This document shows, piece after piece, positions 4,050-30,951 of a stretch of DNA of 52,080 nucleotides. The translations under genes and the position numbers were made by a program. Source of the DNA: an uncultured bacterium (GTDB lineage: Bacteria; Chloroflexota; UBA5177; JANWHV01); the NCBI GenBank assembly GCA_963729625.1, contig CAVSOU010000020.1:1-52080 (forward strand), written 5' to 3'. Every line of letters starts with the position of its first letter. Position 1 is the first letter of the stretch. The notes under the pieces are model-generated. The model was not told the origin of the DNA and did not search any database. It saw nothing but the letters and a program-made list of their open reading frames with translations.

Positions 4050-4061
4050 GGCCTCCCTCCG

Positions 4062-4460
4062 TTAGCGGTCCCAGTAGCCATGGTCCGGCTCGCTCCGATG
4101 CTCCGTGTCCATCCGCGCCGGCTGCGTCGCCTGCTCAAGCTGCCGCGCCTCGTCGTCCCGCGCCTGCCGCAGGGCATCTTCCATGCCCTTCCACAGCAGG
4201 TCCCAGCCGCCGGGCAGGCGCTCGATCGAGCCCGGCCGCGCCGCCTCCACGGCGCTGGTCAGCTCCACCATGTCCAGCTCGGGGTGCGCACGTGCCAACT
4301 CGGTAGCGGCGGCAAAGACCACGCCGCGCTCGCCCAGCACTGCCCCGACCACCCGCCACTGCTGCCTCACCAGGTCCTGGTAGGCGCGGGTCAGCGCGAC
4401 CGTCGCGGCCGGCAGCGATCGCCTCAGCTCCGATTCCGCGGCCGGCCAGGGATTCCCGAC
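4062..4460 (-). CDS. helical hypothetical segment, either a separate gene or the frameshifted C-terminus of the Fic protein
   Basis: protein-like amphipathic sequence (AESELRRSL...EDALRQARDDEARQLEQ) overlapping the low-complexity tail of the Fic ORF; no clear start. Confidence 0.45.
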   Translation of the reverse strand, partial: VGNPWPAAESELRRSLPAATVALTRAYQDLVRQQWRVVGAVLGERGVVFAAATELARAHPELDMVELTSAVEAARPGSIERLPGGWDLLWKGMEDALRQARDDEARQLEQATQPARMDTEHRSEPDHGYWDR

Positions 4461-12404: not shown

Positions 12405-13263
12405 TCAGGCCGCGAGTCTCTCGCTGTTCGCCTGCTCGGCAGCCACGCCCAGGATCCGATCGACGGCTCGCTGCGCCTTGCCGGCGGCCGACACGATCAG
12501 CGACACGTCGCCCTGCAGCCTGTCGATCCACGAGCTGATATAGGCGGCGCTCTGCTCCATGGTCGAGTGGTCGATCCCGCACTGGCTCGCCAGCATGGCG
12601 GCGCCGATCTCCGCGATCAGCTCCTCCTTGCTGTAGCTCTCGCTGGCAAAGATCGTGCTGTCCGTGCCGTCGAAGCGGTCCAGGCGCGTCTTGTGGCCTG
12701 TGCTGTGCATCAGCTCATGGTTGAGCACGTTGTAGAAGGCTTCCACCTGCGGGAACTGGCCCATGGTGGGTACGACGACCGTGTCCGCCGTCGGCATGTA
12801 GTACGCGCGATCCTGGTGCAAGCTGCAGCACCTTGGGGCCGTCCACGTAGCCGGCAACGATGGCCTCGGCCTCCGCGATCGGCTCGTGCTCGACCGGTGC
12901 CGCCAGCTTGCTGGGGATGCCCTCCACGTCGGCCAGCGCGAAGACGTTGTAGTAGCGCAGCAACGGGATCGCTCCCCGCTCGTCCCGGTCCTCGGTCGCC
13001 TCGCGTGCCGGGAGAAGCCTGTAGAACACCACAAGGTGCGCGTGGCTGCCCCGCTTGATCCGGCCGCCCAGATCCTGCACTTGCCGGAACGTCAGGTACT
13101 CGCCGCCCTGCGGCAACAGCAGCGTGTTGATGCCCCGGTACGGCTTGCGGCTGACATAGTTGATCGCTCCATCCGACACCCACGGGCGGTGCCAGGGCAC
13201 CACGCCAGCCTGCAGCTGGGCAATGATTCTCTCGGTGACGATGCCGGCGACGTTGTTTGCCAT
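12405..13263 (-). CDS. ardC: antirestriction protein ArdC (ssDNA-binding domain + zincin metalloprotease), one frameshift near 12825
   Basis: IIAQLQAGVVPWHRPW, YRGIN, YLTFRQ, YYNVF; C-terminal half HELMHSTGH, YSKEELIAEIGAAML, SAAYISSW. Confidence 0.93.
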
Positions 13264-14657: not shown

Positions 14658-15265
14658 TAAGGGCTCGTTAAGCAATTAGTTCCTGATTTGAGTCTGGCGC
14701 GGCCGGGCACGTGGCAACCCCTGATCGGGACGAGAGTGTGTAGTTCCACTTGGTGTAGATCTCATGCTTGGTCAACTGCAAGGCGTCCATGTCGGCATCG
14801 GGGACGGAGCGGCCAGTCGGGTAGTCGCCCTCCAGGCGCACTGCCTGCACCGCCAGGCCCGTGCTGGTCGTGGTGCCGCGGATGTAGGCGAGCATGGTCT
14901 CGAAGGTACGCAGGGGCTTGCCTGCCCAGTTGAGACTGATCGGACCGAACAGGCGATGCTCCACCGGGTTCCACTTCGAGCAGCCAGTGGGGTAGTGGCA
15001 GACGGTCACCGTGAGCCCCAGCCCGTCGCACAGCTGCTCCTGCAGTTGCTGCTTCCACAGGCGGTTGCGACAATCATTGCTGCCACCGCCATCGGCCAGG
15101 ATCAAGAGTTCCCGGGCGCCGGGGAAGCGGGCCCGGCCGTCGGTCTGCCACCACTGGGCGATGGCCGTGACTGCGAACGCCGCCGTGTCTCCCGAGGAAC
15201 CGACGTAGACCGTGCCCCGGTTGTGCTGCAGGTCGTAGACGCCATAGGCGGCGTCGGGCGGTTGA
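14658..15265 (-). mobile_element. ISAzo13-family transposase, 3' remnant with probable right end
   Basis: YGVYDL..N.G.V.VG.S.DTAAFAV, LLILADGGGSN, HYPTGCSKWNPVEHRLF, WNYT; N-terminal half absent. Confidence 0.88.
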
Positions 15266-15266
15266 C

Positions 15267-18200
15267 TCACACCGACACCTCTGCAGTGCCGACCGTCGAT
15301 CCCAATAGGGTAGTGCCCAGGGGACCGTAGTACACCCAAGGCGCCCACGCTGCGGCGCCGACCACAGATGGCGTGAGTGTCGCGCGACACAAATCCCGAG
15401 TTGCGATTTCCCACGCGGTGAGGAAGGGCAAAAGGCGGTCCTTGTTGCTTTCGTCTCCCTCGGTGGCCTGACGGGAGTCTCTCAGCGCTTGCTTCCACGC
15501 CTCGAGTGCACGCGGGACTGCCGCCCAGCTCATCTGGCTTAGCTCAAGCTGTGTCCGGCGCATGGATTCTGCCACGGGCATATCAAACGCGTCAGCCAGT
15601 TTCCCATACAGGGTGTCCAGCAGGAGTGCCGCCAGTAGGTCGTCGACGAGTGCCGTGGTGGCGATGACGGCAGTCGCGCCCGCCAACAGACAGGCCTGTA
15701 CCAAGCCGTGCAACCCTTGTGCTTCGTCGTTCAAGCGTCCATCTGCCGCCGACCCCTGCCGCGTGGTAGACGTGCCTAGCGCTGCGCCGGCGGTGCGGCA
15801 GCCATGGAGAATGACGACCGTGCCAGGCAAGACGCAGCGCAGGACATCTGTCACGGTCAGCGGGCCATCAGCCAGCATGATGCCAGTACGGTGCGGCTCT
15901 TCGTCGTTCTGGACGCTGTGACCAGCGATCACTAGCAGCCGGACCTGCGCGGCCAGTTCCTGCACCTGATCCAGGCTTGCCTCCCTATCTATACGAACAT
16001 GCGCCACAGCGCCGGGACACACGCCGCGCAATCGTTGGCTCCCAACTAGGGCCGCGACCTCGGTGAGCGGGGCAGGATCTGCCCATAGGTGCCAGGAGGG
16101 CAGTTCAGGCCATGAGTCTCCCACAGTGACCACGTTGCCATACGCCACAAACGCGAGCGCATTGGGGTGCATCGGGCTGGCTAGTGCTTCCGTTACATGG
16201 CTGGTGTCGCTTACGGGCGCTGTCGACGACTGGGTGTTGTAGGAACTTGGAGTAGCGCAGCGCTGCCCCAGCCTGGGCAGGAGGGCGCCCTGCGGTAGAT
16301 GGGCAATCGTCAGATCCGTGCCGCCGACCCCGCTTGCATACGCTGCCGCTGCAACCGGCGCCTCCAGCAGGGATGTATCTAGACTTAGATACATCCTGCG
16401 GATGCCCTGGCGCCGTATTTGCTTCGTCCAGGCTGGGCCGGCCAACGATTCCCAAAGACCGTTCAGGGCTACGGGAATGCCCTCGTCTCGCGCGGGATGC
16501 CGGACAGATCTCGCGTGAGTCGGGCTCTTTCGCCCCTCTGTTACCCAGGGCAGGGACAGACGCGCATCCTCGACCAACCGCGTAGCATGCCTGGCGGCGG
16601 CTAGGAGGTGATCCTTGTTGGGTGGCAGACTAGGTGTGCGCCCTGCCCATCGTGGAAGGCCGCGCCACCACCGGCCGAGCCTTGACACGACCGTCTCCGT
16701 CTTTAGCGTCGTATCGGCAGTACACGCAAAACGGCGTGGCGGCGCCAGCAGTCCCCGCGGCCCCAGCAGAAAGGCCACCAGACCCAGTGGCGTCTCCACT
16801 ACCTCTAGCAGCACTGCCTTGTCCCCGGCCAGGGCCTCGCACACGTCCGCCATTGCGACACCCGCTGGCAACGCCGCGCCCTGCAAAGGGCACGACTGAC
16901 GGCCATCGGCAGCGAGCTGACGAACCGCCCGATCGAGGAAGCTCCCAGCTAGAGAGAGTACGGCAATCTCTCGTGCGCCAACAGCTGCCCAAAGCTGTGC
17001 CTGCGCATCCTCGGTGGCATACAGCGCGCGGAGTGCCTCCTTGCGTTCTACGTCCTCTTCCCCCAGATCCTGTAGTGCTGCCCACTGGGCTACCCACCGA
17101 CCGCGGAGTTGTGCAAGCTGGTCTGTTTCCTCTCGTGTCAGGTAGCGCAGTAGATCAATCTGCTGCACGCCGACGAAAAGGTCAGCAAACGTGGCGCCTT
17201 TGGCTACCTGGCCTAGCACGTAGGCGCGTTCAGCATCCGCTTCGGCGTAGCGCCAACAGGCGCGCAGGGCATAACGTTGGGCCTTAGCGCTCAGGGAAGG
17301 GGGCGCAAGGCCCCACCGATATTGCCATCGGCGCTGCAGCACCGCCGCTTGGCGCCGGTAGAAGAGATAATCCCGCCAATTCAGCACCTCGGGCCGCTCG
17401 CATACGCTAGCCGCTGCGAGCGCGGCCTCCGCAGCACGTTGCTCGTGCTCGAGAATGCTATGGTCCTCGATTGACTGACGATAGTGATAGAGGGCATCTG
17501 GCCATTGTTCCAGTTCGGCGTATGCTGCGCCCATGTCGAAGTGACAGATGGCTAGGCGCTCACTCATCTCATCCTGCTCAAGGATGTCGCACGCTACACT
17601 AAAATGCTCAAGTGCGGCGAGGGGGTCTCCATTCGTGACGAAGATAGTCCCAGCAGCGAGGGCGCAGCGAGCGACGTTCCCCCGATCCCCTGTACTCTCA
17701 GCCTCCTGCCGAAGCTCTGTGATCAGCTGCAGCGCCCGGCCGCGCTGCCCTTGCCGAGCCAACGCCGTGGCCATGAGAACCTTGCAGTCGTAGACGAGCG
17801 AGGGCCGATGTTGCGCTAGGATTGGAAGCGCTTCCACACAGTACCGAAGCGCATGGTCAAACTGCTTCAGCCCGATCATCGCTCTTGCCAAATGATAGGT
17901 GCAACTCACCATGTCGTCCGGTTGCTGCAACCGCTCCAGTTCGTCATGGGCGCGGGCAAGGCGTCGTACCGCCTCCTCAAGGAGGCCCATATCTATAAGG
18001 CACATGCCGGCGATGCGCTCGCAGTCCGCCGCTTGGTACTCGAGCCCGAGCTCCTTCCACAGTTCACGCGCTCGTTTCGCCTCTCGGGATGCCTCTCGAT
18101 ACCGGTTCAAGTACCAGAGGCTACGGGCGAGATTGTCGCGCGTTCTTGCTTCGTTCTCCTTTGGTCCGTGAATCGCAAAAAAGGTGGCTGCCTGCATACA

Positions 18201-19196
18201 GTGCTGAGCCGCCGTCTCGAACTGTCCGAGGTTGCATAGAATTCCTCCACTAAACATGTAGCAATCATGTATTTTAGGCGCGTTCTGCTCTGGGTCGAAC
18301 AGCGAGAGGGCTCGCCTACAGCAACGCAAGGCCAGTCGTGGTCGGTCCAGGCTTGCGAGCGTCTCAGCGGCTCGATAGAGGGACTCCGCAGCGTCGTTCC
18401 ATGCCTGGCGGCGTTGGAATAGTCTGGCAGCCCAGTAAAGACGGAGGATTCCCAGACGATGAGCATGCACCGGATATCCCGGGATAGTCAGCAGGTGACC
18501 TATCTCGTAGTCGCATTGTGCCGCAGCAAGCGGTTGTTGGGAGCTGAGATAGATGCTATGTGCCCGCATACAACGAAAGACGGCCTGCTGCCAGAGGTGC
18601 TGTCTGATTAGTAGAGCCCCTGCCAGTTGATGACAGTACGCAGCCTCGAGAAGCAACTGCTGATCCGCGAACAACCGGCGCGCCGTGTCGAGTCGGCGAA
18701 GAGCGGCCGGGAGATTCTCGAGGTTGAAAAGCAGGCCGGCGGCATGCCGATGGCACCAGGCGACACTCGCCAATTCATCCTGGCCACAACGATGGAGCAT
18801 GTGGCGAGCGCGATTGTACAGGCCAAGCCCGGATCTGTGGTTCCCCTGGAGTTTTTGCGCCTGTGCCATCTGGAAGGTGCAGTGCGCTACGTCGCGTTGG
18901 CACACGACGCCTCGACGCCCAAGGTCTCTGAAGGCGTTGCGCGCTAGTTCGAGCCGCGCATAGGCCTCCTCCGGTTGATTGCAGTTGAGGAGTGCTCGGC
19001 CAGCATAGAAATCCACCGTGGGGCTGCTCCCCCCATCCAAAGCGAGCGCAGCCTTTGCCGCATCGAGCAACCCAAGCGCACGTGTAGGCTCTTCCTCCAA
19101 CAGGCCGGAGGCTTCGCGGCAGAGTTCTGCCAGCCCGTTCTCCTTCCGGAGGAGGGCCGCCAGTGCCCCTAAGTCAACTTCGTGGGACGTAGCCAT
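15267..19196 (-). CDS. TPR-CHAT caspase-like protease, paralog 2
   Basis: long TPR-like array, then CHAT motifs LLVIAGHS, VVILHGCRT, GLVQACLLAGATAVIA, WAPWVYYG; ATG 1 nt after the upstream stop. Confidence 0.9.
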   Translation of the reverse strand: MATSHEVDLGALAALLRKENGLAELCREASGLLEEEPTRALGLLDAAKAALALDGGSSPTVDFYAGRALLNCNQPEEAYARLELARNAFRDLGRRGVVCQRDVAHCTFQMAQAQKLQGNHRSGLGLYNRARHMLHRCGQDELASVAWCHRHAAGLLFNLENLPAALRRLDTARRLFADQQLLLEAAYCHQLAGALLIRQHLWQQAVFRCMRAHSIYLSSQQPLAAAQCDYEIGHLLTIPGYPVHAHRLGILRLYWAARLFQRRQAWNDAAESLYRAAETLASLDRPRLALRCCRRALSLFDPEQNAPKIHDCYMFSGGILCNLGQFETAAQHCMQAATFFAIHGPKENEARTRDNLARSLWYLNRYREASREAKRARELWKELGLEYQAADCERIAGMCLIDMGLLEEAVRRLARAHDELERLQQPDDMVSCTYHLARAMIGLKQFDHALRYCVEALPILAQHRPSLVYDCKVLMATALARQGQRGRALQLITELRQEAESTGDRGNVARCALAAGTIFVTNGDPLAALEHFSVACDILEQDEMSERLAICHFDMGAAYAELEQWPDALYHYRQSIEDHSILEHEQRAAEAALAAASVCERPEVLNWRDYLFYRRQAAVLQRRWQYRWGLAPPSLSAKAQRYALRACWRYAEADAERAYVLGQVAKGATFADLFVGVQQIDLLRYLTREETDQLAQLRGRWVAQWAALQDLGEEDVERKEALRALYATEDAQAQLWAAVGAREIAVLSLAGSFLDRAVRQLAADGRQSCPLQGAALPAGVAMADVCEALAGDKAVLLEVVETPLGLVAFLLGPRGLLAPPRRFACTADTTLKTETVVSRLGRWWRGLPRWAGRTPSLPPNKDHLLAAARHATRLVEDARLSLPWVTEGRKSPTHARSVRHPARDEGIPVALNGLWESLAGPAWTKQIRRQGIRRMYLSLDTSLLEAPVAAAAYASGVGGTDLTIAHLPQGALLPRLGQRCATPSSYNTQSSTAPVSDTSHVTEALASPMHPNALAFVAYGNVVTVGDSWPELPSWHLWADPAPLTEVAALVGSQRLRGVCPGAVAHVRIDREASLDQVQELAAQVRLLVIAGHSVQNDEEPHRTGIMLADGPLTVTDVLRCVLPGTVVILHGCRTAGAALGTSTTRQGSAADGRLNDEAQGLHGLVQACLLAGATAVIATTALVDDLLAALLLDTLYGKLADAFDMPVAESMRRTQLELSQMSWAAVPRALEAWKQALRDSRQATEGDESNKDRLLPFLTAWEIATRDLCRATLTPSVVGAAAWAPWVYYGPLGTTLLGSTVGTAEVSV

Positions 19197-19197
19197 C

Positions 19198-22100
19198 TCA
19201 GCCTGACACTTTCTCCGGGGCGACATTCGACTGTGAGAGAGTCACGTCGAAAGGGCCGTAGTAGATCCAGGCCGACGACGCTGTCATGCCCGGCACGGCC
19301 GACGCCAGTGCCGCATGGTCGAAGCTACGTATCTTCGCCTCATTCGATTCCAGAGCCTTCACCAGCGGATCCTCCCCACCCTCCTTCTCGATCACGCGAC
19401 CGCTGCTTTTCACGATCTGCTTCCATCCAGCCAAGGTGTCTAGGACTGCCAACCAGCTCATATGGCTGACGTGAAGCTGGGTCGAGCGCAGGGACAGCGC
19501 TACCGGCTGATCGCCTGCTTCCGCCAATGTTCCACACAGCCTGTCCAACAGGAGCGCCGAGTGCAGGTCATCGACCCGTGCCGTGCTGGCGATTACGGCG
19601 GTAGCTCCGGCCAGTAGGCACGCCTGGACCAGTCCCTGCAGCCCGGGTGCTGCGACAGACAGGCTCCGGTCTGTCCGGGCCACTTGCCGCGGAGCGGCCG
19701 TACCCGGTGCCGCGAAAGAGGTCCGGCAGCCATGCAGAATGACGATGGTACCGGGTAGGACGCAGCGCAGCATGTCGCTTGCGGTGAGCGGACCATCTGC
19801 CAGCAGTATGTTGGTGCGAAGCGGCTGTTGATCATCCGGGTGACCATGCCCGGCGATTACGAGCAGTCGGGACGAGGAGGCCAGGCACTGCACCTGGTCC
19901 ACAAGGGCTTCCTTCCCCACACGCGTCCGCACCCCGCCGGCGGGCAGCGCCTGTCCCAAGCGCCGGCTTCCGGCAATGGCCGCCACCTCCGTGAGCGGCA
20001 CCGCGGGTTCCCACAGCTGCCAGGATTCCAGATCGGCTGACGATGTTGAGTCGGCAAAGACATTGCCATTCGCCACGAAGGCGAGCACATCGGCACGCGA
20101 GGTACCGGCCATCGATTCGGTTGCCTGATTCCCATCGTGGTTTGCAGACGCCGGCGCGCGTGTGCCGGAGCCCGCCGCTTCGGAGCGACGAGCCAGCAGC
20201 CTGGGTAAGAGCGCGCCCTGCGGAAGATGAGCGATAACGAGATCTGCGCCACCGATTCCGCTTGCATAGGCCGCGGCTGCAATCGGTGCCTGGAGCAGTC
20301 CAGCGTCCATGCTGAGGTAGAGCTTGCGAATGCCGCGGCGCCGCAACAAACTCGTCCAGGCGCGACCGGCCAGGCACTCCCACAGCGCGGCCAGCGGTGC
20401 ATCGAGGTCGTCGCCTCGGCCGGGTTGCTGAGCAGCGCCTGCACACGCGGCCTCCTCGCTTCTCACGGCTACCCAGGGCAAGTTGAGACGAGCATCCTCT
20501 ACCAGCTTCGCAGCAGCCACCGCGGCAGCGAGGAGTTGATCGAGATCACCCGTTGGCTGTGTGCGTCGCGCCATCCGTCCAAGCTTGCCCCACAGCCGGC
20601 CGCGTGCGGTAGCATGTTGCTCACCCGCCCAGTCTATGTCGCCGGCATGGGCGAAGCGGCGCGGCGGCGCCAACAGCCCATGCGGCCCCACCAGGAAGAC
20701 GACCATCCCTAGTGGCGTCTTGACCAATTCCAGCAGTGCCTCGTCGTCGGCTAGCGCTTCGGATACGCTCGTGACGGCAAAGCTCGCCAGCAGCCCTGCG
20801 GTTCGCGGAGTATGCGCCCTGCCACCGGCGGCCGCGAGCCGGCGTATCGTATCGTCGAGGAAGCTCCCGGCCAGAGAACACAGCGAAAGCTCACGTGCGC
20901 CGGCCGCCCGCCAGATCCGGTCCTGCACGACCTCAGTGCCATCCATAGCGGCGAGGAGGGTCGTGCGGTCAGGGTCATCAGTGGCTAGCTCCTGCAGTGC
21001 AGTCCACTGCGCTACCCATTGATTGCGCAACGTCTGAAGCTGACCTCTCTCGTCGGCGGTCAGGTAGCGCCGCAGATCGAGATGCTGAGCACCTCCGAAG
21101 AGGTCGGCCAAGGCGGCGGCCTTGGCTACCTGGCCCAACGCGTATGCGCGCTCAGGACCCGGATCGGCCGAGCGCCAGCACGCACGCAGGGCGCCAAGCT
21201 GAGTGCTGGTACCCAGGGGCGGAGGGGCGAGTCCCCAGCGATGTTGCCAGCGTCGATGCAGGATCCCGGCCTGCTGCCTGTAGTAGAGCGCGCGTCGTCG
21301 ATCACTCACGCTGGGATGCTCCGCCACGCGTGTTGCGATTTCTGCGGCCTCCGCAGCCTCATTCTCGCGTTCAAGGCTGATCCATCCCTCCATGGCTTGA
21401 TGCAAATGGCTCAGGGCGAGTGGCCAGTCTGGCAATTCGCTGTACGCCCTTCCCATCGTTTGGTGACAGGAGGGCAGACTCCCGAGGTCTGCGGTTCGCT
21501 CATAGAACTGAAATGCCGCACGAAGATGCTCAAGGGCTGCGCGCGGATCTCCCCCAGCAAGCAGGATTACTCCGGCGGCTTGGTTACAGGCAGCGATATG
21601 CTTGAGATCGCCTGTTTGCTCGACCTGTCGTCGAAGTTCCGCCAACAACTGCAGCGCGCGACCGCGCTGGCCCCTGTTAGCGAGCGTCATTGCGAATTCG
21701 AATTTGCACTCGTGAACACGCTGGGGCATATGTTCGGCCAGGACGGGAAGCGCGGTCTGATAACAATGGAGTGCCGAATCCAGATGCCCAAGGGCCGCTA
21801 ACGCCGTCCCCAGACGGTAGGCGCATTCCGCCGCACAGCCAAATTGCTCCAACTGCTCCAGTTGGCGCTTGGCCTCGGCCAGGCGCGGTACAGCCTCCTG
21901 CGGACGGCCCATTTCGATGAGGCAGACACTGGCGACGCGCGCACAATCGGCCGCTTGGTGTTCGTCCTCCAACTCATGCCACAACTCGCGCGCCCGTTCG
22001 GCTTGCGGCAGGGCGGCTCTATGCCGCGTGAGCTGTGCCAGGCTGACGGCAAGGTCCCTGCGTGTCCGCGCCTCGCTCACTTTCGGACCATGGAGTTGGA

Positions 22101-23211
22101 AGAAGGTACACGCACGGTCCAAGTGTGGCATGGCCATCTCGTACTGCCTCAATCCGAACAGGACCTCGCCGATATTTCTGTGGCATTCGTGGGCTTTCGG
22201 CAGGTCGTTCTCTCGCTCGAACAGTGCGAGCGCCCGCCTGAAACAGCGTATCGCCAGACGCGGGCGCTTTAGAGTCAACAGCGCCTCGGCAGCTGCATAG
22301 GCGGTCTCCGCCGCACTGTGCCATGCCTGACAACCTTGGAAGACCCTGACGGCTCGATAGAGATAGGCCATGCCTGTGCGAACATAGCCTGGACGGCCGC
22401 TGCGTGTCAGGGTATCTCCGATCTCAGCGTCGCATTGGGCGGCAAGTTGCAGTTCCAAAGACCTGACATAGGTGGCACGAGCACGCTCATACCGATAGAC
22501 AGCCTGCGAGTAGTGGTGCTGTGCGCCCAACACCTGACCCGCCAGCCGTTGGCAGGCGGCAACGTCGCGCTCTTGTTGCAGACGCGCGAATATGCTTTGT
22601 GCCGCGTCAAAGCGATGCAGTGCCGCAGGAAGGTCATCAAGCTGGATCAGCAGAACGCCAGTGTGATGATGGCACCATGCAACGTTGCTCACCTCATTCT
22701 CGCAGTGCGCAAGCATGTGGCGTGCACGATTGTAGAGGCCAAGAGCAGCTCGGTAATGTCGCTGGCATGCCTGCGCTCGTGCCATATGGAAGGTGCAGAA
22801 AGCCACGCCGCGTCTGGCCTCCAGACTACGGGATGACGGAATTGCCTTGTACCCGAGACGACCTTCGGCAAGCAGCTCATATGCGTCGGCCGGGCGATCA
22901 CAGGCGAGAAGCGCAAGTCCTTCATCGAGATCCACTTCGGGGCATCCACACCCATCCAGCGCCAGCGCCGCCCGCGCCGCGTCTAGCAGCTCAAGCGCGC
23001 TTTCAGGCTCTTTTTCCAGCATGCTGTGAGCGTTGTTCAGCAGATCCGCCAACACGGTTTTGTCTCGGAGGAGCGCCGCCAGTGCCTCTAGGTCAACGTC
23101 ACTGGATATGTCCTGCGGCTCAGGGTTGGCGGGGCAGTCGGGCGCGAGTTGCCCTGACACGCCGTCATCGCCTCGACCAGCGAGCGTTCCGCCCATAATC
23201 CCCATCTCCAT
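19198..23211 (-). CDS. TPR-CHAT caspase-like protease, paralog 1 (start could be GTG 23274)
   Basis: same architecture; LLVIAGHG, IVILHGCRT, GLVQACLLAGATAVIAS, AWIYYG. Confidence 0.9.
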   Translation of the reverse strand: MEMGIMGGTLAGRGDDGVSGQLAPDCPANPEPQDISSDVDLEALAALLRDKTVLADLLNNAHSMLEKEPESALELLDAARAALALDGCGCPEVDLDEGLALLACDRPADAYELLAEGRLGYKAIPSSRSLEARRGVAFCTFHMARAQACQRHYRAALGLYNRARHMLAHCENEVSNVAWCHHHTGVLLIQLDDLPAALHRFDAAQSIFARLQQERDVAACQRLAGQVLGAQHHYSQAVYRYERARATYVRSLELQLAAQCDAEIGDTLTRSGRPGYVRTGMAYLYRAVRVFQGCQAWHSAAETAYAAAEALLTLKRPRLAIRCFRRALALFERENDLPKAHECHRNIGEVLFGLRQYEMAMPHLDRACTFFQLHGPKVSEARTRRDLAVSLAQLTRHRAALPQAERARELWHELEDEHQAADCARVASVCLIEMGRPQEAVPRLAEAKRQLEQLEQFGCAAECAYRLGTALAALGHLDSALHCYQTALPVLAEHMPQRVHECKFEFAMTLANRGQRGRALQLLAELRRQVEQTGDLKHIAACNQAAGVILLAGGDPRAALEHLRAAFQFYERTADLGSLPSCHQTMGRAYSELPDWPLALSHLHQAMEGWISLERENEAAEAAEIATRVAEHPSVSDRRRALYYRQQAGILHRRWQHRWGLAPPPLGTSTQLGALRACWRSADPGPERAYALGQVAKAAALADLFGGAQHLDLRRYLTADERGQLQTLRNQWVAQWTALQELATDDPDRTTLLAAMDGTEVVQDRIWRAAGARELSLCSLAGSFLDDTIRRLAAAGGRAHTPRTAGLLASFAVTSVSEALADDEALLELVKTPLGMVVFLVGPHGLLAPPRRFAHAGDIDWAGEQHATARGRLWGKLGRMARRTQPTGDLDQLLAAAVAAAKLVEDARLNLPWVAVRSEEAACAGAAQQPGRGDDLDAPLAALWECLAGRAWTSLLRRRGIRKLYLSMDAGLLQAPIAAAAYASGIGGADLVIAHLPQGALLPRLLARRSEAAGSGTRAPASANHDGNQATESMAGTSRADVLAFVANGNVFADSTSSADLESWQLWEPAVPLTEVAAIAGSRRLGQALPAGGVRTRVGKEALVDQVQCLASSSRLLVIAGHGHPDDQQPLRTNILLADGPLTASDMLRCVLPGTIVILHGCRTSFAAPGTAAPRQVARTDRSLSVAAPGLQGLVQACLLAGATAVIASTARVDDLHSALLLDRLCGTLAEAGDQPVALSLRSTQLHVSHMSWLAVLDTLAGWKQIVKSSGRVIEKEGGEDPLVKALESNEAKIRSFDHAALASAVPGMTASSAWIYYGPFDVTLSQSNVAPEKVSG

Positions 23212-23290
23212 GGTGTTGTACTCCAGTCGCTGCTTGCAGCCGTCAACCGCCCGGAGTCCCACGGCCCTTGTCACGGCAGCATGACCTGCC

Positions 23291-24955
23291 TCAGCCGCCC
23301 TCTTCGATCCGGTAGGCCAGATTGAGCTTCAGCAGCTGCCCTCGGTTCAGGCCATCGTCGATGGACCACACGCCGCTTTCCTCGCGCGTGTTGAGCGGTC
23401 TCTCTTCCTGTGCGATACGGAGCGTTGCAGTCAGCTCCCAGGGGCGAGTGAAGCCTTGCGCGGAACCCAAGTCGATGAGTCTGGCTTCGACGTGATAGCG
23501 CTTGTTGGCGTCGGGCGTGGCGGTCACGCGCAGCGTCACGCCGTGAGCCCGATCAGGCACCTGCACCTCCTTGACCGTGGGCTCCTCGCCCAATGCTGTA
23601 CCAATGGCCAGGCTTGGCTGCTGGTGCGCCTGCTTGAGAGCATCGCCGAAGTGCACCTGCACCCATTCCCCCGACCGCTGGAGCGCTGCCAGCAACCCGC
23701 CCTTCGCGGTCGCTGCTGTCGATGGGCCGAGCGTGGGCTTGGGAGTAGGCTCGACTGCGCCAAACCTGCCCCAAACTCGGCTGTCCCGCGTCAACCCCTC
23801 TATGCCGCCGGCGCGAAGCACCGATCGGGCTTCAGCTGCGTCAACAACCGGCTGCCCCCTCACCAGTGTCTGGACTTGTGGGTGAAGGCTGAAAACGGCC
23901 TCAGGACCGCTCTTCGTGATTTCCGGCAACGACTGAAGCCTGAACAGGTCCCCAACGTTCGCGTCAACCGGCACCAGAAGCCCTATCCTAGCAAGAAGAT
24001 CTGCCCCATGACCGGCTTCGAGGCGTTCATTGGGCACGCGCCAGATAGTGGAAGGAGGTCGAAGCTGAACCAGCGCAGTGAGCAGTTGACGTTCTTCGGT
24101 GCGCAGGCGGTCAAAGACCCATTTGTACAGCAAGTCCAGCACACCACGGCCTCGAGATGCGATAGTATCGCCATCTCCGATTATCCCCCAGTGGCCTTCC
24201 TCATCCTGCCCTGCCACGCCGAGATGCGCGAGGAGATCCTGCATGCTGGCAGCCACCGTAGCAGCGTTTCCCTCTGGCGCAGCGCCGACGGCAAGCCTGA
24301 TCGCCATCGGTAGACCGGAGGTAGCGTGACAAACATGCGCGAGCCACCACCCGAGCTCGGACGTGAATTCAAGATCAGCCGTGCGTCGGCGCAGCAAACC
24401 AAGCGCACACTGGATTGAGGCGTTGGTGGCCAGACAGTAGATCATGGGGAACGGGTCTAGGTTGGGTACCTCCAATGGCGCGATTTCGCGGGCGGGAATA
24501 CCGAGCGTCTTTGGCGGTTCCCTGCTTGTGACAATGACGACCAGTGACGGATAGCGTTCGACAAGCCCCTTGCACAGACTCCCGTAATCAAATCTCGGGA
24601 GATCACAGCCATCCGCAACAAGGAGCACGGGCTCCTGCCGCTGGAGCAGCTCACGTGCGGCTTGCCATTGCAGGTTGGTTGCCGGTGCAGTTTGCGGTGC
24701 GAGCACGATACGCTCGAATTGCTGCATCTGGGAGATGTCGAGAAGTGCGCAGGGTATGCGCCAAATCCGGAAAGAGAAGCGGCGAGCTAGCTCGCCAGTC
24801 ACCTGCCGAGCAACATGACTCTTGCCCACGCCACGGTTCCCCCACAGCCAGAGCAGGCGGCTGAGCGGGGGCGAGTCCGAACCCGGTTGCCCTGCGAATG
24901 CATAGACGGGCCGGGTATTCTTTCCTGCCGTTGCGTCAGCGTCTCTAATCGCCAT
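23291..24955 (-). CDS. STAND / NB-ARC-like ATPase with non-TPR C-terminal domain
   Basis: Walker A GNRGVGKS, Walker B LLVADGCD, sensor VTSRE, GLPMAIRL, winged-helix-like region ending LHPQV. Confidence 0.85.
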   Translation of the reverse strand: MAIRDADATAGKNTRPVYAFAGQPGSDSPPLSRLLWLWGNRGVGKSHVARQVTGELARRFSFRIWRIPCALLDISQMQQFERIVLAPQTAPATNLQWQAARELLQRQEPVLLVADGCDLPRFDYGSLCKGLVERYPSLVVIVTSREPPKTLGIPAREIAPLEVPNLDPFPMIYCLATNASIQCALGLLRRRTADLEFTSELGWWLAHVCHATSGLPMAIRLAVGAAPEGNAATVAASMQDLLAHLGVAGQDEEGHWGIIGDGDTIASRGRGVLDLLYKWVFDRLRTEERQLLTALVQLRPPSTIWRVPNERLEAGHGADLLARIGLLVPVDANVGDLFRLQSLPEITKSGPEAVFSLHPQVQTLVRGQPVVDAAEARSVLRAGGIEGLTRDSRVWGRFGAVEPTPKPTLGPSTAATAKGGLLAALQRSGEWVQVHFGDALKQAHQQPSLAIGTALGEEPTVKEVQVPDRAHGVTLRVTATPDANKRYHVEARLIDLGSAQGFTRPWELTATLRIAQEERPLNTREESGVWSIDDGLNRGQLLKLNLAYRIEEGG

Positions 24956-25988
24956 CGGTCAACTCCGCCAACCTCGCCACGGAAGGACCTGCCTTTTGCA
25001 ACAGCTTCTTAAGGATGCGCTCTGCCTGTTCCCCGCCAGCTGATGACCTATACTCTTTCTCGGCCCAACCGAACCAGGTGACAACCGGAGTGACGGCTTC
25101 GACAACGTCATGGGGTACGTAGAGCTCTCCCATCACCTGCTTGTAGGTTCGAGCAAGAGGGGGGAAGACATCGAAGTTCCCCGTATTCAGTTGTGACTCG
25201 ACGTACTGATCATATTCTTCCTTCGCTCTCTCGAGTTGCTGGTTGATGCCGTAGTACGTTATGAGACACTGAAGAGCAGCCGTATCCTCGGGATCCGCAT
25301 GTATCACTCCTAGGAGATAGGATTCCAATTGTCCGTCTGCCCCGCGTTGTCCGCCTGGATCTTGCGCCGCCGTCGCCAGAAGAAGCTTCCGCCACTCCTT
25401 CTTGAGTAGCGTCTGACGAGCTGCAATCGTCCCGACATAACTACCGTCGGGAAGATACTCCTGTTGCCAACCCAGCGCGAGCGCGGCATAGCAAGCAGTC
25501 GGATCGCTTCCGGCCTTGTTCAGTTGTCTGACATACTTCCACACGTCCAGCCATTCTCCCTCCTGGAAACTGTCATCCATAGAGGGTTCGTGCACCTCGG
25601 TTGCTCTCTTGGCGCAGCCTGGCACACAGAACATGATGATGTCCTGGCAGTAGTGGACGTACCGATAGCCACCGTCGCCAACCAGATGCCTATTGGCCAA
25701 CTCATACAACGCCTCACGCTTCGCATGAGGGAAGTCGACTGAAGAGTTCGGTGCATGGCGTTGAGCTGAGGGCGGTCTCTTTGTTACCTCACGTATCGAC
25801 TGGATTACTTCCTGCCTGTCGACACGCGGATCGAGCCGACAGGGGTCGAGCGTGAGTCGGCTAACGGCGACCATGAGCAATTCTTTAAGTGCCCAAGCCC
25901 TGCCAAAGTCTACCCGTCGTGGTCCTTCGGCATCGTCAAGCGTTACCACGAACTTGCCAAGCGTTCTCACAGTCAAGCCAGGATGCAT
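24945..25988 (-). CDS. divergent SARP/AfsR-type regulator (OmpR-like HTH + BTAD)
   Basis: LTVRTLGKFVV start, WLDV, AALAL...EYLPD, DPEDTAALQCLITYY...A...Y; GAGGGGAG RBS. Confidence 0.7.
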   Translation of the reverse strand: MHPGLTVRTLGKFVVTLDDAEGPRRVDFGRAWALKELLMVAVSRLTLDPCRLDPRVDRQEVIQSIREVTKRPPSAQRHAPNSSVDFPHAKREALYELANRHLVGDGGYRYVHYCQDIIMFCVPGCAKRATEVHEPSMDDSFQEGEWLDVWKYVRQLNKAGSDPTACYAALALGWQQEYLPDGSYVGTIAARQTLLKKEWRKLLLATAAQDPGGQRGADGQLESYLLGVIHADPEDTAALQCLITYYGINQQLERAKEEYDQYVESQLNTGNFDVFPPLARTYKQVMGELYVPHDVVEAVTPVVTWFGWAEKEYRSSAGGEQAERILKKLLQKAGPSVARLAELTDGD

Positions 25989-26217
25989 GCTTTCTCAACT
26001 CCCCTCGGTTCCGTAGCCGAGACCCTTTCTGCGGCAGCCTGAAAAGCTTTAGGCCCACTCGCTAGGAGCATACGGCCGGCAATACGGCTTGTCGAAGGGC
26101 CTGGCAACCCGGCCCTATGCCCTTCTGTTTCCGTACCTGGGGCGTGCTTGCCTGCGCCTGGAGACGCTGGCCTCCGGCTGTCGCCCAGGCGATCAGCTCC
26201 TAGTATGCCGAACTTCC

Positions 26218-26259
26218 CGTCAGTACTGACGCTGGGCGGTGTCAGTGTATATACTGACG
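26218..26259. promoter_or_regulatory. tandem GTCAGT/ACTGAC inverted repeats in the divergent intergenic region
   Basis: perfect palindrome CGTCAGTACTGACG (26218-26231) and GTCAGT-N6-ACTGAC (26241-26258). Confidence 0.55.
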
Positions 26260-26607
26260 CCCCCTTCTCTATGACCCTGACGGACTACCGCCTAGAGTAG
26301 GGAACAGCTCGAGTGACCAAACGCCCCGGGAATGAAGCGAATCGCCAGAGCATCACGCCAGCGCCTCGGGACGCCCCTAGACGCCAATCGACACGAAAGG
26401 AGGGACCTGTCTAAACGTTGACGCCGTAGCGCCCCAGTCCCGCTCGCTCCAGCTCATCCGCCCCGAATCCCCCCAAAACGCGCCAGCCGCGGCGGGCAGC
26501 CCCGTCAACTTCCCTCCGACGGACTGTCTTTCGCCCCAACCCACCCGTCACGGCCGGCGCTCTCCCCTCGGCGGCCCCCGCCGAGCCAGTCACCAAGGAG
26601 TGTCGTC

Positions 26608-26856
26608 ATGCCTCGATTTTGCTCACCCACCCTCGCCCCAGCCCCAGTCCTTATTCCGCGCTGCGGTTGTGGCAAGGCTGCCACGCACGGGTGCCGACAG
26701 TGCCGCCGGGCCGGCTGCCCCGAGTGCCTGCAGGGCGGCATGTGCAGCCTGTGCCGCGTCCTCCAGGCCCAGGAGGCCGCTCGCGTCTGGGCGGCCGTCG
26801 TGCAGCGTGAGGCCTGCCAGGCCGTCTGTCTCCGTCCCCGTTCCCAGCACTGGTAA
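26608..26856 (+). CDS. small Cys-rich (B-box-like) zinc-finger protein
   Basis: CGC..CRQC..CPEC..CSLC; AAGGAG RBS. Confidence 0.65.
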   Translation: MPRFCSPTLAPAPVLIPRCGCGKAATHGCRQCRRAGCPECLQGGMCSLCRVLQAQEAARVWAAVVQREACQAVCLRPRSQHW

Positions 26857-26948
26857 CACCAGCCAGCCCTCGGTCCCGCTCATCTTCCCACGCTCATCGG
26901 GATGCGCCTTCCCCCCTGCCGGAGGGTCCGCCCAGAAAGGTCACCGCC

Positions 26949-27821
26949 ATGTACAACGTGAAGGTCCTGGTTCTCTTGACGCTTCTCGCCTCCAACCCGC
27001 TCTGGGGCGCGCTCGTGGCCTATGCGGTGCGAGGCGCGGCCCGCGTGCTCCGCTCCGGTCGCAGCGCCGCCTTTCTCGCCGCCGGCTTGACCGCCGTTGT
27101 GACGCTCGCCGGCTGCGGCGGGGCCAGCAGGCACACGCAGGCCATCCCGCTCCGGCCCGGCGTCGCCCTTTACGCGTGTATCGCCGAGCAGTTCAATACG
27201 CGCTACGTCGGCGGAGATCTGCACGTCGCCCTGGTCAGGGCGGCCCTGGCCCTCCCCGCCGTGGGCACCGGCGCGAGCGACGCCGACGCGGAGCGTCTCG
27301 ACGGCGGCGCGGCCCCAGGCAAGATCATCGCTCGCGGCCACATCGACGCCGTACCCGCCCCCGCCCTCACGCCGGTGCCCAACCGCTACACCCGAGCGGA
27401 GTACCGGGCCGCCGTGGCCACCGCCAACGCCTCGGCCGTGGCGGCCAGTGCCGCCGCCCTGCAGCATGCTCGTGTCCAGGCCCACCAGTTCGCGACCGCC
27501 CTCTTCGCCAAGCAGGTCGACCGCTCGCTCCAGGGCAGCGACCTCGGCGCGTGCCTGGGTGGCGGGGCCGCCTTCTTCGCCTCCCACCCCGGCCAGACCC
27601 CGATCCTGGTGGTGTCCGGCCGTCTCGTGCCCGAGGGCCCGCAGACAGCCCTCACCGGCGTTGACCTGCGCAAGGCAGCCGTGCATCTCGTCTTCTACTG
27701 CGAGGAAACCGCGCAGTGTCCGGCCCGTCTGCAGGCCTTTCGTGCCACCCTGAGTCGCCTGGATGCCGGCTCCATCACCGTCTCGCCGCCCGAAGATCTC
27801 GCCCTGCTCACCCTGGTTTAG
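26949..27821 (+). CDS. membrane-anchored/lipoprotein with possible degenerate vWA-like fold
   Basis: hydrophobic N-terminus, LAGC lipobox-like motif, GSDLGACL...PILVVSG; GAAAGG RBS. Confidence 0.6.
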   Translation: MYNVKVLVLLTLLASNPLWGALVAYAVRGAARVLRSGRSAAFLAAGLTAVVTLAGCGGASRHTQAIPLRPGVALYACIAEQFNTRYVGGDLHVALVRAALALPAVGTGASDADAERLDGGAAPGKIIARGHIDAVPAPALTPVPNRYTRAEYRAAVATANASAVAASAAALQHARVQAHQFATALFAKQVDRSLQGSDLGACLGGGAAFFASHPGQTPILVVSGRLVPEGPQTALTGVDLRKAAVHLVFYCEETAQCPARLQAFRATLSRLDAGSITVSPPEDLALLTLV

Positions 27822-27839
27822 CGTTAAGGAGTTGTCCGC

Positions 27840-29057
27840 ATGTTCAGCTGGCCCCTCTTTCTCGACGTCACCCTCAAGGCCTTGGCCGCCGTCACGCTGC
27901 TCACCTTGCTCGCTCTCCCGCTGCGCCTGGCTCGTGGTGAGCGCCTGATCCTCGCCCTGTTCGCCATGCCGCTGGCTGTCCTCTCCGCTCCCTTCGCCGC
28001 CCTCGGTGCCGCGATCCTCCTGCTGGCAGCCGTGCTGCGTCACCTGACGGCCGGCCTGCTCGCCCTCGCCCCCCCGGAGCGCCGAGCCGAGGCCGGGGTC
28101 TTGAGCTGGTACCTGTTGCTGCCCTTGCTTGAGATCGCGCTGGCGGCCCTCCTGGTCGCCTCCGGGGTCGGGTTCGACTCTATTAAGTTCACGGGCTTGG
28201 TGGGCGGTGACGCCGGCACCGTCGACGCCAGCACGTTGGGCACCGCGCTCGCGCTCAGCTGGATGCTGGGCGGTACGCTCTGCGCTCTTATCCTGGCCGA
28301 CAGCTTCGGCCACAGCCCGCTGGGCAAGGACGCCGACGGCCGGGGCATCAGCATGAGCATGTGGTTCGGCCACGTCTCCGGCAGGCTTCTCCTCGCCGTG
28401 CGCGGGCTGGCTCTCATCGCCCTGGCCCTCTACCTCCTGAGCGCGTTCTTCTTCGCCCTCTGGAGCGCCGACCCCAACAACGATCAGGCTGCCCAGAGCT
28501 TCATGCTCTGCTACGTCATCGCCGTGGTGCTCATCACCATCCTGGCCGGCGCCACGCTGCCGCACACCGCCAAGGCCCTGGTGATCGTCGCCTTTGCTCT
28601 CCTCTGGCTCCTGTGCCACGCGCTGCAGATTCTGGTCTGGATTCCCATCGCCCTCATCGAGGCAGTCCGCGACTTCGCGCTCGTGGCCCTCGCGGTCCTC
28701 GCCGACCTGGCCTTGCTGCTCTTCGTCCGCAGTCGCCGCCAGCCGCCTACCGCCACGCCGCCCGAGGCCGAGCCGACCGTCACCTCCGCCTCCCCCAAAC
28801 CCGTCGCCTTCCGCCAGGCCGAGGAGACGCCACCCGCCACACCGGCGGCCGAACAGCCTGCCACCGCTGCCCTGCCCAGTCAGACTCCGACGCCGGCCGC
28901 CCCGAGCACTCCCGCAGGACCCGCCGCGGGCGACACCGAGGACTACGGCCTCCCTGCTGCCGTCGGTCCGCGCGTTCGGGTGGTTCCCACGCTCGCGACC
29001 GCCACGAACGGCTCTACCCCGCGGCACACCACCCCGCCCGACGCCAACGGCTGCTGA
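27840..29057 (+). CDS. multi-pass membrane protein with Pro/Ala/Thr-rich C-terminal tail
   Basis: many hydrophobic segments; TAAGGAG RBS. Confidence 0.75.
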   Translation: MFSWPLFLDVTLKALAAVTLLTLLALPLRLARGERLILALFAMPLAVLSAPFAALGAAILLLAAVLRHLTAGLLALAPPERRAEAGVLSWYLLLPLLEIALAALLVASGVGFDSIKFTGLVGGDAGTVDASTLGTALALSWMLGGTLCALILADSFGHSPLGKDADGRGISMSMWFGHVSGRLLLAVRGLALIALALYLLSAFFFALWSADPNNDQAAQSFMLCYVIAVVLITILAGATLPHTAKALVIVAFALLWLLCHALQILVWIPIALIEAVRDFALVALAVLADLALLLFVRSRRQPPTATPPEAEPTVTSASPKPVAFRQAEETPPATPAAEQPATAALPSQTPTPAAPSTPAGPAAGDTEDYGLPAAVGPRVRVVPTLATATNGSTPRHTTPPDANGC

Positions 29058-29274: not shown

Positions 29275-30276
29275 CTACGGTTGCTCCTCCCTCTGGCGGT
29301 TGACTTCGAGCACCATCCGCCGCAGCGTGTCGTCACCTCGCTGGACCAGATCCAGCAACGCCGCTGTGATCTCTGTGTCGTGGTAGCGAAGCCGTCCGAG
29401 CGTCTGGACGGTCCAGATCTGACCGCCGGCACTGCTGGTGCGCAACTGCGCCAAGAGGTATGCTCTGCACTCGGACAACTGCTCGTTCTCGAAGGCCAAT
29501 GTCTCGCCACACAGGGTGCGCAGTCGGCGACGATCGGCAGCCTCATCCGGCATGTGATAGCCCCATGCCTCTCTGCACGTTGCGTAGATATCGTCCACAA
29601 GCGCAGCCCACCGCGCTCCGAGGTGTCTTTGCGCGAGCGCAACCGCCTCAGCCTTGCTCGCAGCAGCGTCGCCCGACCGCAGGGCGACGAGGACGGTCGC
29701 AGCCCAGCACACGACCGCGACAAAGAGCCGCATGGTCGAGGTGCCGTGAGGCGGGCGGGGCTGGAAGTCGTAGCCGTAGAACTCGCCCGCCGGGTCGGGA
29801 TAGCACAGTGGATAGCTGAGCGGACCGCGTTCACGCCGGATCAGCGACAGGTGGAAGAGAGACTGATCGATTGCCTCCTGGATGAAAAGTCCGAGCGGTA
29901 CGTGCGGGAGGCGCGCCTTAATGTCGGTCCCGGCGATCAAGCGTCCAGCATTGGCAATGCGCATGTCGCCAGTACACAAGAGTTCATCCGCGCCGAGCGC
30001 GAAGAGATCGAGCCGAACCGTCCCTATGGCGTTGCAGCTAGCGGCAAGGCGCTCGCAGTCGTCCACGTCCCTCTGCGTCAGGTGGCCGCGCAAGACGAGG
30101 CACACGTCTAAGTCGCTGAGGTCGTCGTAGCGATCCCTGCCCCACACTGCCTTACCCTCGGCGACACTGCCGATTACATAGCTCGCCTCGACGCGTCCCG
30201 GGAACGCGAGGTCGGAGAGGTCGACGACACCACCAAGTACGCGATCGACGGACTCAACTCCCGTTGGAAGAAACAT
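29275..30276 (-). CDS. pol-beta-superfamily nucleotidyltransferase with helical C-terminal domain
   Basis: YVIGSVAEG...SDLDVCLV motif and later acidic LDLF strand. Confidence 0.75.
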   Translation of the reverse strand: MFLPTGVESVDRVLGGVVDLSDLAFPGRVEASYVIGSVAEGKAVWGRDRYDDLSDLDVCLVLRGHLTQRDVDDCERLAASCNAIGTVRLDLFALGADELLCTGDMRIANAGRLIAGTDIKARLPHVPLGLFIQEAIDQSLFHLSLIRRERGPLSYPLCYPDPAGEFYGYDFQPRPPHGTSTMRLFVAVVCWAATVLVALRSGDAAASKAEAVALAQRHLGARWAALVDDIYATCREAWGYHMPDEAADRRRLRTLCGETLAFENEQLSECRAYLLAQLRTSSAGGQIWTVQTLGRLRYHDTEITAALLDLVQRGDDTLRRMVLEVNRQREEQP

Positions 30277-30304
30277 GATCAGGCCCTTGGTTGTCTCGTA
30301 GTGC

Positions 30305-30951
30305 TCAGGCCGCATGCAGGACACGCTGCCGGAGTAGATCCAGCTTCATCCTACCGTACGCACTGCGCTTGAGCACCCTGTGAATATGCCCTTCGACCGG
30401 CCCGTTCGACCATGGGAGCGTCAGCGCTGCGCGCACCGCAGCGCCGTCCTGCTCGAGGCTCGCTGCGAAGTTGCGGAGTTCAGGTGCGGGCCCTACGGCG
30501 CACTCTGCGATCCAGGCCTCAAAGGCATCGACCTGCCGTTGCCGCACCATGGTGGCGAATTGGGCAACCATACCCTGCAGCCAGGCCAGCCCTACGTGCT
30601 GCCGTAGCTGCTCCCACAACGCGCGATCGTCTGCGTCCAAGCCGCAAGCAGCAGCAACGCGGTCACGACCACCCGTACTACAGGCATCGGCAGCTCACTT
30701 CACCCTGCTCGCCCGCTCCTGCGGACAGGTGGCGCGGGGTACAAGCAGGCGTCACGCTCAAGCATACTCCATCCAGCGCGCCTATCCCGCGCTGTCGCCA
30801 GCGGGCTCACGGGGCGCTTGGAGCAGCTTGGCTGCAACAAAGTCGATCTGACGCCTCAACACATCGCGCCACGATCGGCGGCGGGTAAGGTTCCTACCGG
30901 TGCCAAGGTCGTGGTCGGGACGACAAGGATTTCACGAGAAGTCGGTGGAAC
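30305..30951 (-). mobile_element. ISL3-family remnant (transposase C-terminus, internally deleted)
   Basis: AALTLPWSNGPVEGHIHR, LKRSAYGR..DLLRQRVL; possible terminal sequence near 30931-30951. Confidence 0.8.

Follow-up and report, generated by a model that had tools for sequence, protein, structure and literature searches.

Type III-E Craspase consists of the TPR-CHAT protein Csx29 together with Cas7-11, Csx30, Csx31, and a sigma factor. Gating of a transcription factor by proteolysis has been proposed for DdvA/DdvS of Myxococcus xanthus, which includes a transmembrane anti-sigma with a periplasmic TPR-CHAT region carrying a canonical His-Cys dyad, and DdvA is a dimer (PMC11506125). The ECF54 cassette encodes an ECF sigma factor, a zf-HC2 anti-sigma-like protein with a CarboxypepD_reg-like domain, a TPR-CHAT protein, and an S8 subtilase (PMC8999054), and a two-protease cascade has been described that runs from SAVED-CHAT through PCaspase to a sigma factor (bioRxiv 10.1101/2023.06.23.546230). 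Other bacterial operons pair an AP-ATPase of the NB-ARC type with a caspase-like peptidase and are regarded as conflict systems (PMC8195603; PMC7159879), their partners being coupled by Death-like or EAD adaptor domains that both carry (Kaur et al. 2020, 2021). The locus described here occupies positions 15267-25988 of a contig from an uncultured Chloroflexota bacterium (contig C20, 52,080 bp, the whole of which is called the window below) and is a variation on these known themes, CHAT-gated transcription on one side and STAND plus caspase modules on the other. It is a four-gene operon encoding a split regulator and two TPR-CHAT proteases. The genes, with coordinates and lengths from the list of open reading frames (ORFs), are as follows.

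24945-25988, minus strand: P0001, 347 amino acids; OmpR-type winged helix at about residues 3-125, BTAD at about 145-285, and a tail of about 60 residues, all by profile comparison
23291-24955, minus strand: P0002, 554 amino acids; nucleotide-binding, helical, and winged-helix domains (NBD-HD-WHD) at about residues 31-390, a Pro/Thr/Ala-rich stretch, and a beta-rich C-terminal part at 389-554, by profiles and an AlphaFold2 (AF2) model
19198-23274, minus strand: CHAT-1 (P0003), 1358 amino acids from GTG 23274 or 1337 from ATG 23211; helical/TPR repeats followed by a CHAT caspase-like domain at about residues 960-1270, by Pfam
15267-19226, minus strand: CHAT-2 (P0004), 1319 amino acids from ATG 19226 or 1309 from ATG 19196; built like CHAT-1, with its CHAT domain at about residues 921-1232, by Pfam
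15918-15920, minus strand: codon of the CHAT-2 dyad residue H1103 (1319-amino-acid numbering)
15798-15800, minus strand: codon of the CHAT-2 dyad residue C1143 (same numbering)

A preliminary description of this DNA had reported four co-directional genes with an 11-nt overlap between the SARP and STAND genes, and the ORFs and the junctions as read in the sequence agree. The genes are tightly packed across 15267-25988, with the TAG of P0001 and the ATG of P0002 sharing 11 nt, and 5′ of that ATG lie a GGAG, at a distance of 7 nt, and an in-frame stop, at a distance of two codons. From the P0002 stop to the start of CHAT-1 is 16 nt if GTG 23274 is used, or 79 nt from ATG 23211, which is the start of the 1337-amino-acid database form of CHAT-1 (P0007). 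The gap of 1 nt that had been given for the CHAT genes depends on the start codon, as it holds from ATG 19196 of CHAT-2 and turns into a 29-nt overlap from the first ATG, 19226. Reading frames are intact in all four genes (347, 554, 1358, and 1319 codons). The host genome is a draft of 5.41 Mb in 21 contigs with 87.5% completeness and 5.2% contamination.

P0001 is predicted to be a very divergent small SARP, with a winged helix and BTAD, that is missed by Pfam. No Pfam family matched it, with BTAD (PF03704) and Trans_reg_C both absent at E ≤ 0.1, and a PF03704 search of the whole genome returned 11 places, none of them on contig C20. Aligned by hhalign to 10 winged helix-turn-helix (wHTH) plus BTAD segments of its own genome, P0001 gave a probability of 96% and an E-value of 4.4e-9 over 211 columns (residues 3-262), and a hidden Markov model (HMM) built from those 10 segments, with P0001 excluded, picked it out at 2e-8 when run over every ORF of the genome. 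HMMER, run exhaustively against 1.84 billion representative proteins, returned, besides P0001 itself, only two remote matches, P0010 (2.2e-5) and P0011 (7e-5), both of which align through their BTAD regions with P0001 residues from about 141 to 336 and continue into an NTPase domain; P0010 is BTAD plus NB-ARC, and P0011 is Trans_reg_C-BTAD-AAA_16-TPR. The ESM Atlas also groups P0001 with BTAD/SARP clusters (0.96). The AF2 model has low confidence (predicted local distance difference test, pLDDT, 52), with secondary-structure elements in an order compatible with a wHTH and then an all-helical domain. In Foldseek it matched the SARP domain of AfsR and EmbR best, at weak E-values of 6e-3 to 3e-2, in a test that is partly circular because the AF2 input alignment was made of SARPs. 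A sequence search of the PDB with P0001 yielded chance PsaF rows only.

P0002 is a predicted NB-ARC-type STAND NTPase that carries no sensor repeats and ends in a 165-residue tail outside known families. Its motifs are in register with those of AfsR-type NODs, including Walker A (GNRGVGKS), Walker B (LLVADGCD), TSRE, and a GLPL-like SGLPMAI, and its P-loop begins at residue 39, with no N-terminal effector or adaptor ahead of it. Against the AfsR-type NODs of its own genome, hhalign gave 96.8% and an E-value of 2.1e-10 over residues 31-299, while Pfam scores stayed under the cut-offs for AAA_16 (23.5 bits; cut-off 32.6) and NACHT (21 bits; cut-off 26.7). Residues 31-300 of the AF2 model have a pLDDT of 70-90, and its Foldseek leaders are the NB-ARC domains of NRC2/NRC1, CED-4, and Apaf-1 (E 1.8e-8 to 3e-7); in the PDB sequence search, the NACHT domain of NLRP1 matched weakly (E 0.06). 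The SARP and STAND labels of the preliminary description thus fail at Pfam cut-offs and stand by hhalign, HMM, and fold comparison. The tail is harder to place. The model assigns residues 389-554 a pLDDT of about 30 and leaves 389-473 unstructured, a homologue search with the tail found none, and ESM Atlas leads for residues 385-554 reach at most 0.83, to STAND winged-helix families. The idea that the tail is the C-terminal domain of the usual upstream partner in CHAT cassettes was rejected, as the two showed no relation on comparison.

Taken side by side, P0001 and P0002 look like an AfsR-type large SARP cut into two polypeptides, with loss of the TPR arm. P0001 corresponds to the wHTH and BTAD and P0002 to the NOD of such proteins as Streptomyces AfsR (PDB 8K60, 8HVR), with EmbR (2FF4) as a further reference for P0001. 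In the AfsR type, however, wHTH, BTAD, NOD, and TPR form one polypeptide, whereas here two genes are present and the TPR is not, the 165-residue tail of P0002 standing in place of the TPR arm. The pair here also shares an operon with proteases, and both of its members are too divergent for Pfam cut-offs. Among remote relatives, the closest to P0002 are proteins of the NB-ARC-TPR type, and those closest to P0001 have an NTPase domain next to BTAD, which fits fission of an AfsR-like gene.

The preliminary description had placed the repeats on the proteases instead of the STAND protein, and Pfam bears this out: no repeat family (TPR, WD40, or LRR) was found in P0002, and some 900 residues of helical repeats lie on the CHAT proteins. 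CHAT-1 and CHAT-2 appear from their sequences to be TPR-CHAT caspase-like paralogues with an intact His-Cys dyad. The CHAT domain (PF12770) scores 69.5 bits (4.3e-19) in CHAT-1 and 79.8 bits (3e-22) in CHAT-2 against a cut-off of 24, and TPR_12 scores 79.8 bits (1.8e-22) and 75 bits (5.6e-21), respectively. The two proteins are 51% identical end to end and nearly gapless, with the highest identity (66%) around the active site, in residues 1101-1200. As had been claimed for both proteins of about 1300 residues, the dyad is kept, with the His in LLVIAGH and the Cys in ILHGCRT identical in the paralogue alignment. Colinearity at about 50% identity, rising to 66% at the active site, argues that selection keeps both copies. 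These are the sole CHAT genes in the 5.41-Mb genome, and their CHAT domains are divergent, at 70-84 bits compared with 150-230 bits in the 150 best listed CHAT places of the phylum.

No counterpart of the locus was found elsewhere. It is a singleton, and no orthologue of any of the four proteins occurs in the collections searched, which comprised billion-scale protein libraries, 185,579 species genomes, 241 million metagenome records, plasmids, and 60 relatives. Word-indexed searches of 5.8 billion proteins returned two weak NB-ARC-TPR matches for P0002 and, for P0004, its own paralogue and two weak TPR-CHAT matches, the sole named remote CHAT match being a Chloroflexota protein from a metagenome-assembled genome. 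Neither the CHAT paralogue alignment nor P0002 found a related locus in genome contigs or metagenome contigs. Among plasmids, the locus had no match by megablast and P0004 no orthologue by tblastn; P0002 matched NOD segments at 25-30% identity in 51 records, with at least 80% query coverage in none. In the 60 related genomes, P0004 met only weak TPR or CHAT-domain matches (best E 6.6e-10). Among the sequencing runs listed for the locus, none was of RNA, and one DNA run contained a small share (0.12) of the sampled words.

Each of the systems introduced above shares part of this layout. In ECF54, as here, the co-directional order is transcription factor, presumed regulator, TPR-CHAT, and second protease, but in the present locus a SARP and an NB-ARC ATPase replace the sigma and anti-sigma factors, and a second CHAT replaces the S8 peptidase. 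With DdvA, the locus shares a TPR-CHAT protein with a His-Cys dyad; unlike DdvA, CHAT-1 and CHAT-2 lack a sigma partner, Pfam finds no anti-sigma domain in them, and inspection by eye shows no evident membrane helix. With Craspase, it shares the TPR-CHAT architecture, and the dyad stretch aligns weakly (E 0.06) with ...CHG... and ...ACET of solved Csx29 chains, which presumably contain the catalytic residues of that enzyme. The Csx29 model NF041237, however, reaches only 23 bits against a cut-off of 300, and with P0003 only, and no Cas gene is present among the scanned ORFs. The SAVED-CHAT/PCaspase locus likewise has two caspase-like proteases, but also a SAVED or cyclase part that is lacking here. 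The resemblance to AP-ATPase-caspase operons lies in a STAND ATPase of the Apaf-1/CED-4 clade encoded with caspase-like peptidases; the differences are the presence of a SARP and the absence of a Death-like or EAD adaptor detectable by blastp. The pairing of STAND and caspase-like proteins, part of what the preliminary description had called a candidate new system, is therefore not new at its core, since such operons have been described (PMC8195603). The text of PMC7159879 contains no occurrence of BTAD, SARP, or AfsR.

The reading favored here is that the locus would be a sigma-free variant of protease-gated transcription, a protease-gated SARP/NOD switch, with a probability of about 0.35. 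It is favored because the CHAT systems studied so far (DdvA, SAVED-CHAT/PCaspase) are linked to sigma factors and because the cassette order is shared. The repeat arrays of CHAT-1 and CHAT-2 would sense a signal, and the activated pair, possibly acting as a heteromer or a two-step cascade, would cut P0002 or the tail of the SARP. A candidate cut site is P0002 389-473, the segment without structure in the model. Cleavage would free or assemble the SARP, which would then activate transcription, possibly of the operon itself or of a divergent lipoprotein/membrane-protein pair that lies upstream of it, and the module may serve defense of a mobile element or ordinary signaling. A more specific version is rather doubtful, in which the TPR-CHAT pair would be the detached sensor arm of a split AfsR-like switch and would activate that switch by cleaving its ATPase subunit.

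The contrast with sigma-linked CHAT systems drawn in the preliminary description is apt. CHAT is present in 93 of 301 genomes of the phylum, and 21 TPR-CHAT loci, hand-picked from the top of the list on long contigs and from varied genera, were scanned out to the third ORF in either direction. In eight of the 21, the next ORF downstream of TPR-CHAT encodes an S8 peptidase, and in nine a sigma factor (Sigma70) or zf-HC2 protein lies within three ORFs; weak sigma/zf-HC2 matches up to E 0.05 occur at three more loci and in a second ORF of one locus already counted. Two co-directional ORFs of 166-403 amino acids are found directly upstream at 10 of 21 loci, and the ORF just upstream of TPR-CHAT often has a CarboxypepD_reg-like domain. 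In the window itself, the earlier statement that sigma, gasdermin, and S8 genes are lacking was upheld: by Pfam, no sigma factor (Sigma70), zf-HC2, Peptidase_S8, gasdermin, or Cas gene is present among the four operon proteins and 42 further ORFs.

The recurrent cassette of the phylum (L017, L024, L026-L029, L031, L032, L039-L041) consists of a sigma-like protein, a zf-HC2 anti-sigma-like protein, TPR-CHAT, and S8, in agreement with the ECF54 context (PMC8999054). Its first two co-directional ORFs measure about 170-310 amino acids, TPR-CHAT about 1000, and S8 about 600, and the anti-sigma-like proteins have a common C-terminal beta domain (WPRxY...ISL...LIGFVTR...DELGN) that matches CarboxypepD_reg or SdrD_B weakly. 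Two of these cassettes have a STAND regulator nearby, one of 1123 amino acids with BTAD at its C-terminus, a permuted SARP (L028:12370-15738, genome G209), and one of 1161 amino acids with the architecture AAA_16-TPR-GerE (L024:14705-18187, G152). A control window contains a protein of 1329 amino acids with the reverse architecture of an N-terminal CHAT followed by TPR_12/TPR_MalT (L049:6182-10168, G120).

STAND regulators lie within three ORFs of four of the 21 CHAT loci and of two of 20 control windows, which were placed 18-100 kb from the same CHAT genes, one of them on another contig of the same genome. The comparison is rough, as all neighbors of the CHAT loci were scanned at 1e-5 or 1e-4 and the controls were covered by 30 of 120 ORFs (those of at least 500 amino acids) at E ≤ 1e-8. 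Enrichment of STAND genes beside CHAT genes was rejected as support on these counts. The local NOD HMM finds one of the four STAND proteins, and the local SARP HMM finds one. The host genome has about 20 AfsR-type NOD ORFs and 11 BTAD places, and these numbers and the counts above provide no evidence of a general link between STAND regulators and CHAT proteases. One AfsR-like gene of the host (G000 C11:692227-694762) has an apparent frameshift, with two overlapping ORFs that match the NOD model, and its row loses register in the NOD alignment.

The surroundings of the operon are those of mobile DNA, with the following features.

7-5358 and 46652-47056: N-terminally truncated Tn3 transposase (at the contig start), PRiA4_ORF3, Fic, and PIN genes, by Pfam
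12405-13034 and 12715-13263: ArdC in two overlapping frames, MPTase-PolyVal in the first and ArdcN in the second, by Pfam
14668-15498, minus strand: ISAzo13-family transposase remnant, 5′-truncated (Pfam DDE_Tnp_ISAZ013, 7e-68)
25989-26948: upstream region of 960 bp between the operon and a divergent gene pair
26095-26067, minus strand: sigma-70-like site, by consensus match only
26218-26264: palindromes CGTCAGTACTGACG and GTCAGTGTATATACTGAC, about 230-270 bp upstream of P0001, by repeat match only
26949-29057: divergent gene pair, GC content at third codon positions (GC3) 0.87-0.88, no family match
29275-30324: ORF of 349 amino acids, no Pfam match
30305-30640: ISL3 transposase fragment, by Pfam
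31427-32437: ParB, by Pfam

Contig C20 is a mobile patchwork, rich in insertion sequences and resembling a plasmid or an integrative and conjugative element (ICE). The ParB gene suggests either of these, and the contig ends show no terminal overlap that would indicate circularity. Further genes identified by Pfam include SSB, HTH_17, DUF6011, and an rve integrase, and searches of PHROGs with P0001, P0002, and the neighbors without a family gave nothing relevant. The split of ArdC at 12405-13263 is either a frameshift or an assembly error, and the 349-amino-acid ORF has a GS...SDLD stretch that we take, by eye, to resemble Pol-beta-type nucleotidyltransferases. GC3 of the four operon genes is 0.61-0.68, at the 3rd to 15th percentile of the genome, where the median for long ORFs is 0.74, and this low GC3, together with transposase remnants on both flanks, fits acquired cargo. 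The ISAzo13 homology begins about 12 nt past the CHAT-2 stop; ORF residues 82-256 of the remnant correspond to profile positions 134-307 of 308, so that the first 133 or so are gone. Lying at the CHAT-2 stop, this truncated remnant indicates that the operon ends, on its 3′ side, at a scar left by rearrangement.

In the upstream region, 25989-26948, no direct heptamer repeats of the SARP type were recognized. The palindromes at 26218-26264, with TACTGACGC occurring twice 28 nt apart, look more like an operator for a dimeric repressor than like a SARP site. The first gene of the divergent pair encodes a lipoprotein-like product with a signal peptide and a LAGC lipobox, and the product of the second is a polytopic membrane protein whose tail is rich in Pro, Thr, and Ala. 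The pair at 26949-29057 is a possible set of SARP targets.

Several observations weigh against a protease-gated SARP/NOD switch. The separation of SARP from STAND could be a frameshift, because the assembly is a draft at 87.5% completeness and 5.2% contamination, and the scar at the 3′ end of the operon means that downstream genes may be missing. With no orthologues, no conserved neighborhood backs the four genes as a unit, the frequency of STAND regulators near CHAT genes (4/21) differs little from that in the control windows (2/20), and with about 20 AfsR-type NOD ORFs in the genome their adjacency in this operon could be chance. The winged helix of P0001 has insertions and is without the usual LLWP stretch, and given also the low confidence of the model, DNA binding by P0001 is not assured. 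The low pLDDT of the P0002 tail, where the cut site would fall, may reflect only the absence of homologues. The PADLOC comparison that had been proposed as a check gave no defense assignment, since none of the four proteins matched a model of PADLOC-DB 2.0 at E ≤ 0.001, with DpdI (0.012) and PDC-M15A (0.021) at chance level, and a blastp comparison of the ends of P0001 and P0002 with the whole set of four proteins revealed no shared adaptor domain (best E 0.09).

The direction of control may also be the reverse, as in an apoptosome, although this is unlikely. P0002 would oligomerize on a trigger and activate the CHAT pair by proximity, and the proteases would degrade proteins of the cell or the invader, resulting in abortive infection or growth arrest that shields the mobile element; the SARP would serve only for transcription of the operon. 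Among the best fold matches of the P0002 model, alongside plant NB-ARC domains, are CED-4 and Apaf-1, which activate caspases; bacterial operons of AP-ATPases with caspase-like proteins have been described as conflict systems (PMC8195603; PMC7159879); and the setting is mobile DNA near Fic, PIN, ArdC, and transposase genes. The NB-ARC fold match, however, follows from family membership and is silent on the partner of P0002. P0002 also has neither effector nor adaptor before a P-loop that begins at residue 39, the Death-like or EAD adaptor expected to be shared was not detected by blastp of the termini, and PADLOC gave no match. The large repeat arrays of the CHAT proteins themselves suit sensors better than passive effectors.

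Equally, the regulators may have nothing to do with the proteases at the protein level. SARPs are classically encoded beside the genes that they activate, and the SARP and the NOD could form an ordinary two-piece activator of the CHAT genes or of neighboring genes, without contact between protease and regulator. The 11 BTAD places and about 20 AfsR-type NOD ORFs of the genome speak for this simpler arrangement, as do the STAND regulators near two of 20 control points. It is nonetheless doubtful, since the regulators lie inside the same tight transcription unit as the proteases, the orphan status and low GC3 common to the four genes suggest that they arrived and evolved together, and a NOD without a sensor domain needs its input from elsewhere.

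That the locus is a relic without a present joint function, the decaying cargo of a rearranged element with a frameshifted AfsR-like gene minus its TPR arm and duplicated CHAT genes minus their partners, is very improbable. Speaking for it are the truncated ISAzo13 transposase next to the CHAT-2 stop, further damaged genes on contig C20 (the ISL3 fragment, the truncated Tn3 transposase, and the frameshifted ArdC), the absence of relatives from the collections searched, and a P0001/P0002 overlap that could stem from a single indel. Against it, the four frames are intact, P0002 retains every NB-ARC motif, and a well-placed GGAG precedes its start; in addition, the two CHAT paralogues, at 50% divergence elsewhere and with hardly any indels, are best conserved around the dyad.

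TPR-CHAT proteases are widespread, yet how they work is understood only for those that gate sigma factors (Craspase, DdvA, and the SAVED-CHAT cascade), and AfsR-type NLR-like regulators are abundant, with inputs that are mostly unknown. As a singleton, the present locus is not evidence for a widespread new system, and its value lies in a test with four proteins. It offers a compact case in which to ask whether caspase-like proteolysis can feed a transcription switch of the NLR type or, in the reverse case, whether caspase-like proteases can be switched on by an NB-ARC ATPase in bacteria, in the manner of Apaf-1 and CED-4. If the TPR-CHAT pair does act as the detached sensor arm of a split AfsR-like switch, and so directly controls a transcription activator of the NLR type, no protease-gated STAND/SARP transcription circuit would precede it; it would match the logic of Craspase, DdvA, and ECF54 without a sigma factor, as a self-contained module on mobile DNA.

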